This document shows, in pieces, positions 1,649-11,117 of a stretch of 29,068 bases of DNA; position 1 is the first letter of the stretch; each line of letters begins with the position of its first letter. Source of the stretch: an uncultured Clostridia bacterium (GTDB taxonomy: Bacteria; Bacillota; Clostridia; Christensenellales; UBA3700); NCBI GenBank assembly GCA_947176115.1, contig CAMWPK010000001.1, forward strand, positions 1 through 29,068, given 5' to 3'. A model generated the notes under the pieces. It ran no database searches. It worked only from the letters and a program-made list of their open reading frames with translations, and had not been told where the DNA came from. A program made the translations under genes and the position numbers.

Positions 1649-2728
1649 ATGTATATTGAGAGCGTTCAACTTAAGAATTTTCGCAGTTATGAGATTAAAG
1701 AAGTGACTTTCAAAGAAGGTCTTAATATTATAGTAGGACAAAACGCAAGCGGTAAGACTAATCTTTTGGAGAGTATTTATTGCTCTGGTATAGGTAAATC
1801 TCCGCGTACTAACAACTATAAGGAAATGATTAAGTGGGGCAACGATATTGCCTATATAAAGGTAGTTCTAAGAAAAAACAAGACACTAAATACCATTGAA
1901 TTTTCAATAGACAGTCAAAATAAAAAGAGAATAGCCGTAGACGGCATACCGCTTGTAAAGTTGGGAGAAATAATAGGTATACTTAATATAGTTTTCTTTT
2001 CGCCAGACGAAATGAAACTTATTAAGGAAAGCCCGCAGGAGAGAAGAAGATTTGCAGATATAAGTCTTTCTCAACAAAATAAAAAGTATTTTTATTCGCT
2101 ATCCAAATACAATAACATACTTACTCAACGTAACAAACTTCTAAAAGAACACCGCGACGTAAAGGCCTTGCCGGAAATGTTGTACGGATGGGACGTTCAG
2201 CTTGCCGAGCACGGCGCGTATATTATTCAAAAGCGCTATGAATTTATTGACAAAATTAAAGGCTTTGCCAAGAATATGCACAATGAATTGACGAGTAATC
2301 TCGAAGATTTAGAACTTGAGTACGAAAGTAAGGTAGAATACGGCGAAATTAAAGCCATGCAAGAGGCTTTTTTTGATAGATTAAGAAAAGACTTTGACAA
2401 GGACTTAAATCTTCTTTATACGTCATTTGGCGCGCACAGAGATGATATATCAATAAAAATAAACGGCATAGACGTACGCAAATTCGGATCTCAAGGTCAG
2501 CAGAGAAGCGTGGCATTGTCGCTTAAACTTGCAGAGATATATCTCTTTGAGAGCGAAGTGGGAGAAAAACCCGTGCTACTTCTCGACGACGTGCTCTCGG
2601 AACTCGACCCCGAGCGTCGTAGAAAACTTATGGAATTATCCAGCGGACTTCAAACTCTAATCACTTGTACCGATTTTGATATGGATATAGCGCATAATAG
2701 AATATTGATAGAAAAGGAAAAGAAATAA
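1649..2728 (+). CDS. recF: DNA replication/repair protein RecF
   Basis: NFRSY, P-loop GQNASGKTN, FSPDEM, GAHRDD, SQGQQRS and LLLDDVLSELD motifs are present. Confidence 0.98.
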   Translation: MYIESVQLKNFRSYEIKEVTFKEGLNIIVGQNASGKTNLLESIYCSGIGKSPRTNNYKEMIKWGNDIAYIKVVLRKNKTLNTIEFSIDSQNKKRIAVDGIPLVKLGEIIGILNIVFFSPDEMKLIKESPQERRRFADISLSQQNKKYFYSLSKYNNILTQRNKLLKEHRDVKALPEMLYGWDVQLAEHGAYIIQKRYEFIDKIKGFAKNMHNELTSNLEDLELEYESKVEYGEIKAMQEAFFDRLRKDFDKDLNLLYTSFGAHRDDISIKINGIDVRKFGSQGQQRSVALSLKLAEIYLFESEVGEKPVLLLDDVLSELDPERRRKLMELSSGLQTLITCTDFDMDIAHNRILIEKEKK

Positions 2729-3279
2729 TGAAGCATATAGGCACGCAAACGATAGAAACTAATAGATTGATATTGAGAAGATTCCAAGATAATGACGCGC
2801 AAAGTATGTATAATAATTGGGTTTCTAGCGACGATGTTACGAAGTATCTTACTTGGCAAAGTTATAAGAGCGTAGACGAGGCGAAAGAGAGAATAAATTT
2901 TTTGAAAGAAAATTATTTCAATGATAACTTTTACGATTGGGCAATCGTATTAAAAGAAATAGGCGAACCTATAGGCAGTATAGGAGTAGTAGATATAAAA
3001 GAAAATATCAACACCGTACATATTGGTTACTGCATAGGCAAAAAGTGGTGGCGTCAAGGTATTACTTCAGAGGCTTTAAGCGCCGTAATAGACTTTTTGT
3101 TTGACAAAGTAGAAGTAGATAGAATAGAGAGTAGACATAACATTCTCAATGTTAATTCCGGCAAAGTGATGCAAAAGTGCGGAATGAAATACGAAGGCAC
3201 TATGAGAAAGGCGGATAGAGATAATCAAGGTATTTGCGATACCGCTTATTATGCAATATTAAAGAGCGATAGAAGATAG
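2728..3279 (+). CDS. GNAT N-acetyltransferase, RimJ/RimL-like
   Basis: IETNRLILR, IGYCIGKKWWRQGITSEA and N..SGKVMQKCGMKYEG motifs are present. The start overlaps the recF stop (TAATG). Confidence 0.9.
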   Translation: MKHIGTQTIETNRLILRRFQDNDAQSMYNNWVSSDDVTKYLTWQSYKSVDEAKERINFLKENYFNDNFYDWAIVLKEIGEPIGSIGVVDIKENINTVHIGYCIGKKWWRQGITSEALSAVIDFLFDKVEVDRIESRHNILNVNSGKVMQKCGMKYEGTMRKADRDNQGICDTAYYAILKSDRR

Positions 3280-3283
3280 TATT

Positions 3284-3344
3284 TGTCATTTAGACTTGAG
3301 CGTAGCGGATAGGTTTAGATTTCTCGACTACGCTCGAAATGACA
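3284..3344. repeat. TGTC-tagged palindromic REP-like repeat, as an inverted pair with a degenerate left arm
   Basis: Right arm is AGATTTCTCGACTACGCTCGAAATGACA (3317-3344) and left arm is TGTCATTT..GAGCGTAG. It sits between convergent genes. Confidence 0.8.
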
Positions 3345-3354
3345 TATTATTATA

Positions 3355-3993
3355 TTATTTGAACTCTAACGTATTATTGGGATATTCATTTACAAATCTG
3401 CTCACAACGTCTATAATAAGTCCCCATTCATAATTATCGTAAGTCTTTTGTGTCTTTATTTTTTGTAAGTCAAAATTGAGAAATACAAACTTTATATTCT
3501 CGCTATAATTACTCCATAAAAAATCATTGAGTAAATCTGCGTTATAATGGCAATTTTCTATATTTTCAAATTCAACGCTGTTTTTCCCGTCAAGTTTATT
3601 ATATATATCGTTATAGAACCCTTTGAAAGTATAGTGACCGTATGAGGCGTAATTTGTTTTATCAATGACAATTTTATTGACGAATTCGCCTACGCAATTT
3701 TTGAAAGTCAAGGTGTTATTTGAGCTAATCAAAACCAATCCGTTTATAGCGCTGAATATTTCTTTCCATTTAACGTCGTCATAACTTTTGCCTTCTGTAA
3801 TTTTGCTTAAATCAAAGCCTATAACGACAAATTGAAAACCTATAGCTCTGTTTTGCCATAAAAATTCACGAAGATTATCTAAGTTATACTCAAGATTAGC
3901 AATATTAAATTTATTCATTAATTTATCATAAAAACCCTTATAAGTAGAGTTTCCATATGTAGCATAATCATTTTTATCAATAATTATTTCCAT
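3355..3993 (-). CDS. Tandem double barstar-like immunity protein
   Basis: Two similar halves are present: IIIDK..TYKGFY..YNLDNLREFLW..NTLTFK and IVIDK..TFKGFY..YNADLLNDFLW..NTLEFK. The motif resembles the barstar NLDALWD motif. Its SD (AAGGAG) overlaps the upstream RNase stop. Confidence 0.8.
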   Translation of the reverse strand: MEIIIDKNDYATYGNSTYKGFYDKLMNKFNIANLEYNLDNLREFLWQNRAIGFQFVVIGFDLSKITEGKSYDDVKWKEIFSAINGLVLISSNNTLTFKNCVGEFVNKIVIDKTNYASYGHYTFKGFYNDIYNKLDGKNSVEFENIENCHYNADLLNDFLWSNYSENIKFVFLNFDLQKIKTQKTYDNYEWGLIIDVVSRFVNEYPNNTLEFK

Positions 3994-4006
3994 TATTATA
4001 TTCTCC

Positions 4007-4570
4007 TTATTTCACTTGATAAAAAGTAGTTTCGCCATGGTCGGGCGAAAAGAACATTAGACCGTCATTTGAGTAAAACAACCTTTTGCTATTTCTTGCG
4101 CCTGATATATAATCTATATCGCATTCATACCAGATTCGTCCGTCTTGTAGCGGAAGAATAAATCTACTGTTATAATAGATATCTCCGCCAATCATTTTTC
4201 CAGGAGCTTTGCCAGCTAGGGTATTTTTTCTATAACTCCAACCATATATTTCGTTTGCTTGTTTTTTGGTTATATAGTAGTCAGGCAATTTATTATATAA
4301 AGTTAACCAAACATCTGGTGAGTCAAGACCTTTTTGTGATATAGTACCCACTGGCTTTACCTCAATATCTTTGTAAAAGCAGTCACAATTTGGATGAGCA
4401 GGTAGCGTAGGTTCGGTCTTTCTTAGAAATATTCTATATTTCCTAGAGTTGCAATCCCAACACGGGATTTTACAATTTCCTTGATGTTTATACTGTATAA
4501 ATTCTGACTTGTTCTCTTTTTGTTTTTTATTGGACAAGAAAAAACCAAGCACGTTTTTGAACGCACTCAT
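4007..4570 (-). CDS. Barnase-family ribonuclease toxin with an N-terminal MuF-like CxxC..HPNCxC domain
   Basis: The C-terminal ~110 aa align by eye with barnase (KLPDYYITK, GW, APGK.IGGDI, GR.WYECDIDY.SG.RNSKR..YS.DGL, DH), including the equivalents of catalytic K27, E73, R83, R87 and H102. The start is moved to ATG 4570, behind the SD AAGGAGGT. Confidence 0.88.
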   Translation of the reverse strand: MSAFKNVLGFFLSNKKQKENKSEFIQYKHQGNCKIPCWDCNSRKYRIFLRKTEPTLPAHPNCDCFYKDIEVKPVGTISQKGLDSPDVWLTLYNKLPDYYITKKQANEIYGWSYRKNTLAGKAPGKMIGGDIYYNSRFILPLQDGRIWYECDIDYISGARNSKRLFYSNDGLMFFSPDHGETTFYQVK

Positions 4571-4621
4571 ATTATACACCTCCTTGTGTAAATTTACAAT
4601 AGTATTTAGGGGAGTGAGAAT

Positions 4622-4650
4622 ATTGTATCACGTAAATTTATCAAATTCAA
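4622..4650 (-). promoter_or_regulatory. sigmaA promoter of the RNase-barstar operon
   Basis: Minus strand reads TTGAAT-17 nt-TACAAT, with an extended TGn. Confidence 0.6.
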
Positions 4651-4689
4651 TTTTATGTGACAGATTTTTTAATTGTTTTCGCTAATAGT

Positions 4690-4728
4690 GAGATTTCTCC
4701 ATTTCGCTTCGCTACAGTCGAAATGACG
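4690..4728. repeat. CGTC-tagged REP-like repeat, long variant
   Basis: GAGATTTCTCCATTTCGCTTCGCTACAGTCGAAATGACG. Confidence 0.85.
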
Positions 4729-4983: not shown

Positions 4984-5106
4984 GGCGTGAAAGCAAGATG
5001 ATAAGGAGACGATGAACAAGTGACGCAAGCAAAATTGCGTAAGCGATTTTTGCGATAAGGAGGATAAGCGTTACGCTCGTAGCAGAGTTACGAGCGTGTT
5101 GGTTAG

Positions 5107-7098
<1,992 letters not shown>

Positions 7099-9716: not shown

Positions 9717-9790
9717 CTAAATTATAAAATTCGTGTCATAAAGAGTTTATACGGGTATTGACACTATATCGTACAATAAAAGTAAAAAGA

Positions 9791-9818
9791 AAAGTTTCGC
9801 TGTGGCGGGACTTTTTTT
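9791..9818 (+). terminator. Second terminator-like hairpin directly before the toxin SD
   Basis: AAAGTTTCGC-TGTG-GCGGGACTTT followed by a T run; the stem includes G-U pairs. Confidence 0.55.
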
Positions 9819-9832
9819 ATGGAGGAGAAAGT

Positions 9833-10423
9833 GTGAGAGAATTAGAAAACGTCAGAAATAGCATATTGCAGATATTCGACAGTGCTAGTTGGATACAATT
9901 TATCCATGAAGGATTATTACCGGCGTATACAAGCCAAGAAAAAGCAAAGAACGTAATCAAAGGGAATTTAAGTAGTCATTGCGCTATCTGTAGAAACATT
10001 AACAGGTGTTGTTTCCCTAAAAACAATATGCCTAAATATCCGTTACATCCAAATTGCCATTGCTATTTGTTAGATATTCCAAGACCGCAAGTGACGGCAG
10101 AATGTCCGGAAGAAAAATTTGAAAGATATATTTTTTCGCCTGAATATGTTGGTAATGGAAAAATACAGTTGTATACAAAGTGGGGGTATGGTAAAATTAA
10201 TACGAAATATCTTGTGAATGAACTTACAAGACAAGCTGATAAAAAATATTCAAACGGTGATTTTGAACTCGGTCTGTTAAACGAATACGGTCAGCGTATT
10301 TCTATTGTGACAGAGTTAAATCGATTAGACGGGAAAGGAATAGTAAAATTTTTGACGGGTTGGATGGTATATCCCGATGGCAAAATACAATTGACAACGC
10401 CTTATGGAGGAGAAGTAAAATGA
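9833..10423 (+). CDS. Putative polymorphic toxin: MuF-like CxxC..HPNCxC domain fused to a DUF6883-like domain
   Basis: CAIC..YPLHPNCHC is followed by PEEKFERYIF..GK..WGY..NEYGQR..TGWMV..LTTPY, recognised by eye as DUF6883-like. The start is moved to GTG 9833, behind the SD GGAGGA (9821-9826). Confidence 0.72.
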   Translation: MRELENVRNSILQIFDSASWIQFIHEGLLPAYTSQEKAKNVIKGNLSSHCAICRNINRCCFPKNNMPKYPLHPNCHCYLLDIPRPQVTAECPEEKFERYIFSPEYVGNGKIQLYTKWGYGKINTKYLVNELTRQADKKYSNGDFELGLLNEYGQRISIVTELNRLDGKGIVKFLTGWMVYPDGKIQLTTPYGGEVK

Positions 10424-10797
10424 AAGAATACGATTACGTTGAAGTAACAGTAGAGAAAGAAAAGTACGCCAAACAAGGAGTACACAAAGGAATGAGGGGC
10501 ACAATATTAGACCCTCGCAATATAGACGGTTGTTGGTTGGTATTTTTTGAAGACGACCCGTTTGGAACAGCAATAAAGGAAGAAGACTTGAAGTTAATTT
10601 ATGAAAACGTGAAAGAGCCAATTGAAATACTAGTAAGGGTAATAGTAGAAAAAGAAGAGTATGCTAAGCAAGGCGTACACAAGGGGATGCAAGGAATGGT
10701 GTATGATATTACAGCAGAGAATAATTGCTTACAAGTGTTTTTCACAGAAAACAAAAGTGTACTAATAGATATATTCGATTTGAGAGAAGTAAAATGA
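10420..10797 (+). CDS. DUF4926-like putative immunity protein with two tandem domains
   Basis: MKEYDYVEV..YAKQGVHKGMRGTILD..WLVFF, followed by a second YAKQGVHKGM unit. There is an ATGA overlap with the toxin stop. Confidence 0.72.
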   Translation: MKEYDYVEVTVEKEKYAKQGVHKGMRGTILDPRNIDGCWLVFFEDDPFGTAIKEEDLKLIYENVKEPIEILVRVIVEKEEYAKQGVHKGMQGMVYDITAENNCLQVFFTENKSVLIDIFDLREVK

Positions 10798-11000
10798 AAG
10801 AATACGATTACGTGGAAGTTATAGTAGAAAAAGAAAAATACGCAAAGCAAGGCGTACATAAGGGAATGAAAGGCACGATACTTGACCCAAGAAATATAGA
10901 CGGTATGTGGTTAGTAGTTTTTGAAAATCCAATCACACTCGCAGATGAACTTTTCGTGCCAATAAAAGAAGAAGACTTGAAATTTATTTTTGAAGGATAA
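10794..11000 (+). CDS. DUF4926-like putative immunity protein, single domain
   Basis: A near-copy of the first domain of the preceding gene, again with an ATGA overlap. Confidence 0.72.
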   Translation: MKEYDYVEVIVEKEKYAKQGVHKGMKGTILDPRNIDGMWLVVFENPITLADELFVPIKEEDLKFIFEG

Positions 11001-11021
11001 ACCTTTCTACTGAGTAGTAAA

Positions 11022-11117
11022 ATGAAAGAATACGATTACGTGGAAGTTATAGTAGGAAAAGAAAAATACGCAAAGCAAGGCGTACACAAAGGCATGCGAG
11101 GGGTAATATATGAGTAA
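11022..11117 (+). pseudogene. Truncated DUF4926-like copy (31 aa)
   Basis: Reads MKEYDYVEVIVGKEKYAKQGVHKGMRGVIYE*. It is not in the ORF track and stops 8 bp before a REP-like repeat. Confidence 0.75.

Follow-up and report, generated by a model that had tools for sequence, protein, structure and literature searches.

Barnase and barstar form a textbook protein pair. Little is known, to our knowledge, of the natural biology of barnase-barstar beyond the secreted Bacillus enzymes. Zhang et al. (2012; PMC3482391) tabulated Tox-Barnase with MuF among the trafficking modes and Imm-Barstar as the immunity protein, with MuF-type systems marked by capsid-packaging genes and with polymorphic toxins diversifying via recombination with stand-alone cassettes. 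Jamet et al. (2017; PMC5576092) describe MuF toxins as restricted to temperate phages and prophages, the MuF protein gp7 of SPP1 enters the procapsid through portal binding (PMC6316719), and a 2026 preprint (bioRxiv 10.64898/2026.08.28.747851) reports DUF6883 with Phage_Mu_F and DUF4926. Here we analyze a two-gene locus in an uncultured Clostridia bacterium (assembly GCA_947176115.1, contig CAMWPK010000001.1, positions 1 to 29,068; the whole stretch of 29,068 nucleotides is called the window), in which a gene for a barnase-type ribonuclease (RNase), P0001, is followed by a gene for a tandem barstar, P0002, between recF-GNAT and gyrB. The component parts are already known, as MuF-barnase and Imm-Barstar were catalogued in 2012, while we found no description in the literature searched of the short form that mostly occurs apart from phages, of how common it is, or of the divergent barstar in tandem. 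At a probability of roughly one in two, we consider this pair of genes to be a toxin-immunity cassette of the polymorphic-toxin type that was acquired horizontally, with a zinc knuckle on the toxin as its adaptor or trafficking module.

With barnase-barstar of Bacillus amyloliquefaciens and binase the locus shares the RNase fold, about 47% identity, the catalytic residues, the barstar fold with its acidic helix and the linkage of the two genes. It differs from them in that the toxin has an N-terminal helix and a zinc knuckle instead of a general secretory (Sec) signal, two residues of the guanine-recognition loop are different, the inhibitor is made of two fused domains and is unseen by Pfam Barstar, and both genes are translationally coupled in one operon. 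Like the MuF polymorphic toxins, P0001 has a CxxC...HPNCxC motif directly upstream of its C-terminal toxin domain and a small immunity open reading frame (ORF) directly downstream, and one N-terminal module is combined with different toxins. Unlike them, only the last ~45 MuF residues are present, the knuckle starts at residue ~20-110 rather than ~145-300, the protein has 165-270 residues, and the locus lies outside a DNA-packaging module: its neighbors in the window are recF, GNAT and gyrB, most copies elsewhere lie among housekeeping genes, and the assembly shows no phage head genes. The BECR-Tox3/DUF6883 plus DUF4926 system with N-terminal Phage_Mu_F of the preprint corresponds to a sister module in the same window, which has the same knuckle but, unlike the barnase cassette, another toxin fold family and another immunity family. 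Toxin-antitoxin (TA) systems of type II with BECR-fold toxins (RelE/ParE) are likewise small two-gene pairs of a cytoplasmically made RNase and its inhibitor on mobile DNA, whereas here the toxin comes first and carries an extra N-terminal module, and the inhibitor is a predicted globular barstar without a recognized DNA-binding domain.

The original prediction, made from the sequence of the window, had described an RNase with an intact barnase catalytic set, and this was borne out. In a phmmer search against the PDB, 35 barnase, binase and RNase entries were matched (E 2e-25, the best, to 1e-19), and residues 87-183 of P0001 aligned with barnase and binase at E 2e-25 to 1e-22. By this alignment barnase K27 corresponds to K102 of P0001 (YITK), E73 to E149 (WYECD), R83 and R87 to R159 and R163 (GARNSKR) and H102 to H178 (PDH), E149 and R159 being almost invariant across the toxin family. 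In this catalytic set Glu is the general base and His the general acid, and Lys and Arg serve the transition state. Structure prediction, which had been proposed as a check, returned the barnase fold: the full-length AlphaFold model has a mean predicted local distance difference test score (pLDDT) of 89.3 and a predicted template modeling score of 0.83, and it superimposes on barnase with a VIA-align Z of 16.6 and a root mean square deviation (rmsd) of 1.4 Å over 105 residues at 47% identity. P0001 scores 23.5 bits with Pfam PF00545, just below the gathering cut-off of 24 bits; the same family is matched by 20 of 21 toxin relatives at E <= 0.01 (best 9e-14), and all nine relatives that were scanned singly lie above the cut-off. 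In the guanine-recognition loop, N58 of barnase is kept as N134, and R59 and E60 align with S135 and R136. By alignment and modeled fold, P0001 is a barnase-type RNase with its catalytic set intact, and it is predicted to be enzymatically active.

The inhibitor was recognized from its fold, which in barstar has three parallel strands and four helices, and from profile comparison. P0002 had no match in Pfam (Barstar none at E <= 1) or NCBIfam, or in PDB sequence searches with either the single protein or the profile, and a word-index search with a single immunity domain gave no relatives. A profile search found 38 relatives of the P0002 domain, mostly single-domain proteins without a precomputed Pfam domain. 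P0002 itself consists of two copies of a domain of ~105 residues, which are 44% identical in an alignment of 43 sequences (A3) and 46% in a smaller one (A2). The model of domain 2, built with the relatives from the profile search, has a pLDDT of 96.5, and its best 18 matches in the PDB are all barstars (Z 9.4-11.1, rmsd 2.1-2.5 Å over 86-89 residues; the next match has a Z of 6.8); with Foldseek the E-value against barstar was only 0.06, at a template modeling score of 0.71-0.76 depending on the target. Furthermore, we compared A3 with a profile of 37 canonical barstars encoded downstream of distant mini-MuF-barnase genes (A5, which matches PDB barstar at 7e-21), and HHalign related the two at a probability of 95.3% (E 2e-8, 94 columns). 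In this alignment D50 and D54 of domain 2 fall on the inhibitory D35 and D39 of barstar; at the D39 position, at least 90% of the 43 relatives have Glu whereas domain 2 of P0002 has Asp, and domain 1 has Asp and Glu at the D35 and D39 positions. Orthologues of the fused double barstar are 62-99% identical, and those at 62-70% retain both halves. More distant toxins of the family have Pfam Barstar genes downstream, P0016 with two separate ones. No helix-turn-helix or ribbon-helix-helix type Pfam match was found over the whole of P0002, and the modeled domain 2 is fully folded as barstar. Thus the coupled barstar of the original prediction, to which sequence searches of Pfam, NCBIfam and PDB are blind, was recovered both by fold (Z 11.1) and by HHalign. 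Judged by alignment and model, P0002 is a divergent barstar, duplicated and fused, and would be expected to bind the toxin.

A MuF-like Cys/His module had been proposed to occupy the place of the signal peptide, and the family bears this out in so far as the module is the C-terminal MuF core only. PF04233 (Phage_Mu_F) was not matched by P0001 itself in the Pfam scan; it was matched by 5 of 21 relatives (best 4.6e-7, one above cut-off), and only at positions ~61-112 of the 112 of the profile. A prophage-borne relative matches PHROG head-morphogenesis and minor-head families at 8e-12. Across 15 aligned knuckle modules (A6) the C, C, H and C positions do not vary, H29 and C33 of P0001 being additional, subfamily-specific positions. 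Within the same order, full-length MuF proteins have the knuckle 144-300 residues from the N-terminus and the short toxins have it at 29-67; in P0001 it is found at residues 37-64. A complete N-terminal MuF domain is not present in P0001, ~150-200 N-terminal residues being missing in comparison with full-length MuF. Residues 23-70, compared as part of a larger model, gave no significant fold match in the PDB (Z <3). On profile and motif evidence, the knuckle corresponds to the last ~45 positions of MuF, a phage head protein, and so to its C-terminal core. Separately, we noticed a weak Phage_Mu_F match (E 5e-4, profile positions 56-111) on contig C52 of genome G000 (2065-2223, minus strand), which has two stop codons and may be a MuF remnant.

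The toxin had also been predicted to be independent of Sec, and its N-terminus agrees with this. Taking the maximum Kyte-Doolittle mean over 12 residues within the first 45 residues of a protein, P0001 reaches 1.27 and has no signal-peptide-like segment. Among the best barnase relatives from 1.8 billion representatives (metagenomes), a mean above 2.4 was found in 76 of 115 homologues without the knuckle versus 0 of 12 with it, because of which knuckle and signal peptide look like alternatives. From the missing signal peptide, the toxin would be located in the cytoplasm.

The knuckle is not restricted to the barnase toxin. About 5 kb away, downstream of gyrA, a second toxin (P0007) carries it in front of a DUF6883 RNase-like domain. 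A small immunity-like unit (MKEYDYVEV...YAKQGVHKGM) comes after P0007 in the form of one gene with two domains, one with a single domain and a truncated copy, three to four copies in all, and the stop codon of P0007 overlaps the immunity start as ATGA. The two knuckle copies of the window are only 34% identical at the protein level. In the close relative G003 the second toxin is broken (L031, 9325-10096): it lacks ~127 bp, the knuckle among them, and what is left of it reads in frame into a single immunity unit. Between gyrA and this toxin remnant, G003 also has ~1 kb of extra DNA with a Cys-rich ORF of 174 residues (L031, 8630-9154, minus strand). Matches to the knuckle were found in 18 of 151 genomes of the order, where the short proteins carry barnase (2) or DUF6883 (8). 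Polymorphic toxin systems are marked by just such a sharing of one N-terminal module among different RNases that each have a separate immunity gene. The data lean towards a toxin/immunity pair of this type, because the knuckle recurs on a second, unrelated RNase, the toxin gene comes first, the immunity genes are duplicated and the inhibitor is predicted to be a stable globular protein.

The layout of the locus is given in Table 1. The toxin start was taken as the ATG listed there; the program-made ORF list extends the frame to a GTG inside the Shine-Dalgarno (SD) sequence. The promoter-like site (TTGAAT and TACAAT 17 nucleotides apart, with TG) and the two SD sequences lie where the original prediction had placed them, the barstar SD overlapping the toxin stop codon. 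As read from this overlap, the toxin and immunity genes are translationally coupled, with the toxin first. The promoter match is weak by itself, because such sites are common in this AT-rich stretch (17 observed versus 9.7±3.8 in shuffles). The promoter elements recur at the corresponding positions of a diverged copy from another organism (L012), and the cassette may be expressed.

Table 1. Coordinates of the cassette, its parts and the sister module in the window.
Feature	Position	Strand	Basis or remark
Inserted cassette of 1384 bp with immunity and toxin genes, promoter region and second REP copy	3344-4727	-	Comparison with G003; GC 31.1%
Toxin gene P0001, 187 residues	4007-4570	-	Stop codon included; ATG 4568-4570, TAA 4007-4009
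N-terminal predicted helix, residues 4-18	4517-4561	-	Model pLDDT 55-60; no signal peptide
Mini-MuF zinc knuckle, residues 24-72	4355-4501	-	C37-x2-C40 ... H59-P-N-C62-x-C64; MuF-profile matches in relatives
Barnase RNase domain, residues 77-187	4010-4342	-	phmmer, fold comparison; K102, E149, R159, R163, H178
Immunity gene P0002, 212 residues	3355-3993	-	Stop included (3355-3357); ATG 3991-3993; two tandem barstar-fold domains
Barstar-like domain 1, residues 1-103, helix motif LDNLREFLW	3685-3993	-	Alignment with domain 2
Barstar-like domain 2, residues 104-212, helix motif ADLLNDFLW	3358-3684	-	Model, fold and profile match
Toxin SD AAGGAGGT	4578-4585	-	7 nucleotides before ATG; read in sequence
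Immunity-gene SD AAGGAG	4003-4008	-	Overlaps toxin TAA 4007-4009; read in sequence
Promoter-like site TTGAAT-17-TG-n-TACAAT	4622-4650	-	TTGAAT 4650-4645, TACAAT 4627-4622; 9/12 matches plus TG
REP copy 1	3317-3343	-	Present at empty site in relatives
REP copy 2, long variant	4691-4727	-	Inner end of insertion
Second toxin P0007, knuckle (CAIC...HPNCHC) and DUF6883 RNase-like domain	9758-10423	+	Downstream of gyrA, 5 kb away
Second module including immunity-like array	9758-11115	+	Sister module in same window

The cassette is an insertion. In G003, whose dnaA, recF, gyrB and gyrA proteins are 99% identical to those of the window, recF and GNAT are followed by a single REP (repetitive extragenic palindrome)-like element and, 20 bp on, by the gyrB leader, and the cassette is absent. 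The sequence after this single REP is the one that follows the second REP in the window, from 4728 onward, so that the inserted segment is bounded by direct REP copies and is defined at base resolution. GNAT also adjoins gyrB in four more distant species, and no copy of the toxin was detected among 22 further species of the genus; because of this phyletic pattern, gain of the cassette is favored over its loss. With 31.1% guanine plus cytosine (GC), it compares with 41.5±3.3% for genome windows of equal size, only 0.47% of which are as low. It is, as had been claimed, AT-richer than gyrB and gyrA (45% GC); the GC contents of dnaA, recF and GNAT are also low, at 34-37%. The original prediction of an insertion between recF-GNAT and gyrB with a REP on each side held at base resolution, while the REPs proved to be generic genome-wide repeats and not ends specific to the cassette. 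The REP-like hairpin family (GTCATTTCGAsyGTAGysrAG) has 88 copies in the 1.38 Mb genome and 0 in a reversed-pattern control, exists in short and long variants which often border variable segments, and is found in the window at 3317, 4691, 11133, 11708 and 12802. We considered and rejected REPs as transposon ends: they belong to one genome-wide family, both copies are equally oriented and no transposase is nearby. Recombination between REPs could explain gain or loss of the cassette.

The recF-gyrB junction, where a comparison of presence or absence among relatives had been suggested, also varies in contigs of independent public runs. The cassette is found there with 21 differences and no indels, the listed coding changes being four synonymous and four missense with no stops. 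In the contigs of runs X1 and X2, GNAT and the first REP (window 2716-3353) are replaced by 11 nucleotides, and recF abuts the end of the immunity gene. This third arrangement means that the adjacency is not an assembly artefact and that the recF-gyrB gap is a variable spot. Short REP-to-REP joints in reads (3345/3351/3355 to 4689-4691, with sides of 20-38 nucleotides) were not counted as evidence of an empty site, because REP has 88 copies. Two further observations concern the neighborhood. A segment of ~100-150 nucleotides in the gyrB leader (window 5025-5176) is variable: G003 and runs X1, X2 and X8 lack it or have other sequence in its place, and its resemblance (72%) to L031 10536-10709 of G003 suggests another small repeat element. 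At 215-2728, dnaA (minus strand) and recF (plus strand) point away from each other across 78 bp that hold no dnaN, as in five related species.

The short form is a family. In species genomes at least 589 relatives of barnase were found by scanning; the best 80 of them come from gut and rumen Clostridia and nearly all have the knuckle. In most of these 80 species genomes a toxin ORF of 165-270 residues is followed, within -30 to +27 nucleotides, by an ORF of 91-112 residues. Length and motifs of the short form are conserved across at least 80 species at 37-57% identity, together with a conserved N-terminal extension of its own, which speaks for selection on a stand-alone protein.

We propose, as the most probable course of events, that a barnase-family RNase would be made in the cytoplasm without a Sec signal, and that the ribosome would reinitiate on the overlapping SD and produce the fused double barstar. 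Each barstar domain would present its acidic helix (the D35/D39 equivalents) to plug the barnase active site, and the producer would be protected. The knuckle would most likely be the address module of the family, that is, an adaptor or trafficking domain which carries the toxin to its site of action, and the setting would be competition between bacteria or dealings with phages. Several observations weigh against this reading. The survey of the two nearest genes on each side at 23 loci (91 proteins) found housekeeping genes (SmpB, pyruvate kinase, RNase R, SpoIIE, TilS and others) and two integrases. No toxin relative was found by tblastn in 50,697 phage genomes, and only 4 relatives were found in 2.9 million viral contigs. 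The assembly of the window, a metagenome-assembled genome that is 91% complete, shows no portal, TerL, HK97 capsid or MuF above cut-off and no phage packaging genes which could serve as a delivery apparatus, other routes of delivery not having been searched. As only the last ~45 MuF positions are retained, portal binding cannot be assumed, and with R59 and E60 of the guanine-recognition loop replaced by S135 and R136 the base preference of P0001 may differ from that of barnase.

Phage genes were seen beside the cassette at one locus of the survey (L097, the same as L119, 7854-8776). All PHROG structural matches come from this locus, the other 22 of 23 being non-phage; P0001 and P0002 themselves had no match in PHROGs. 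Here the cassette lies in a siphovirus-type prophage, on the opposite strand between tape-measure and tail genes. In the same prophage we saw portal, protease-capsid, head-closure and tail genes, and the portal is not followed by a MuF gene. A moron on the opposite strand of a tail module occupies one of the places where prophage-borne exclusion genes are usually found, and it is one of the points in favor of an intracellular TA or abortive-infection module, in which the RNase would stay in the cell and be freed from barstar on infection, the knuckle acting as decoy or sensor of phage portal or head proteins. The toxin without a signal peptide, its own promoter-like site, the occurrence of a stand-alone two-gene module at many chromosomal sites and the portal binding of MuF relatives (PMC6316719) are consistent with this alternative. 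However, in PADLOC 2.0 the toxin had no match and the immunity protein only AbiEi at E 0.036, neither protein matching a PADLOC model; the neighbors give no defence-island signal (6 single weak or moderate PADLOC matches among the 91); barstar, a globular protein that inhibits tightly, has none of the DNA-binding or labile features seen in type II antitoxins; the toxin gene comes first; and the data show no trigger. We regard such a module as rather unlikely, with about a one-in-four standing.

It is also conceivable, and in our judgment improbable, that the knuckle is a minimal docking tag for capsid or portal, by which the chromosomal toxin, lacking its own phage, would ride in the heads of compatible phages into the next host, or would sense incoming phage head proteins and leave barstar as an abortive-infection trigger. 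If this were true, gut Clostridia would have a host-encoded RNase family that exploits the phage head-assembly interface.

Another doubtful alternative takes the locus as a selfish or decaying remnant, a 5'-truncated prophage MuF-toxin gene which is kept by addiction, as loss of immunity would be lethal, and which at present does nothing for the host. The polymorphism in presence and absence among near-identical strains, the foreign base composition and the broken second module in G003 would fit such a remnant, and so would the related copy in L012 (387-1620), beside aspartate kinase. There the double barstar (70% identical) is intact, and the toxin gene is split between its domains into a knuckle ORF of 84 residues (HLNCDC) and a barnase ORF of 99 residues. 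Against it stand the short form itself, conserved over at least 80 species with its own N-terminal extension, and the intact state of both genes in the window and in the independent runs, with no indels and no stops among the listed changes. Lastly, a silent recombination cassette, whose knuckle stretch would be a homology arm for swapping toxin/immunity ends onto a full-length prophage MuF in the manner of orphan CdiA-CT/Rhs tips, was considered and rejected as very improbable: the knuckle does lie exactly at the MuF/toxin junction of full-length MuF toxins, and polymorphic toxins do recombine with stand-alone cassettes (PMC3482391), but the gene has its own ATG, strong SD and promoter-like site, no full-length MuF gene was found in the assembly, the cassettes are not next to any MuF gene, and knuckle DNA is too diverged for homologous exchange, as the 34% protein identity of the two copies illustrates.

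A distinct group within the best-scoring metagenomic barnase relatives is without a signal peptide and has, in its place, a remnant of 45 residues from a phage head protein. The P0002 family is a barstar branch missed by current family models, and as a natural tandem barstar it is useful for studies of stoichiometry and specificity. The short form is widespread in gut Clostridia, lies for the most part outside prophages, and can be present in one and absent from another of two near-identical strains. Published descriptions have MuF toxins borne strictly by prophages and delivered by capsids, and a phage-free short form raises the questions of a minimal MuF targeting element and of the route by which such toxins would reach their targets. 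As the carriers of the related loci include cultured ones, namely Muriventricola aceti H5_61 and an Oscillospiraceae isolate, these questions are testable.

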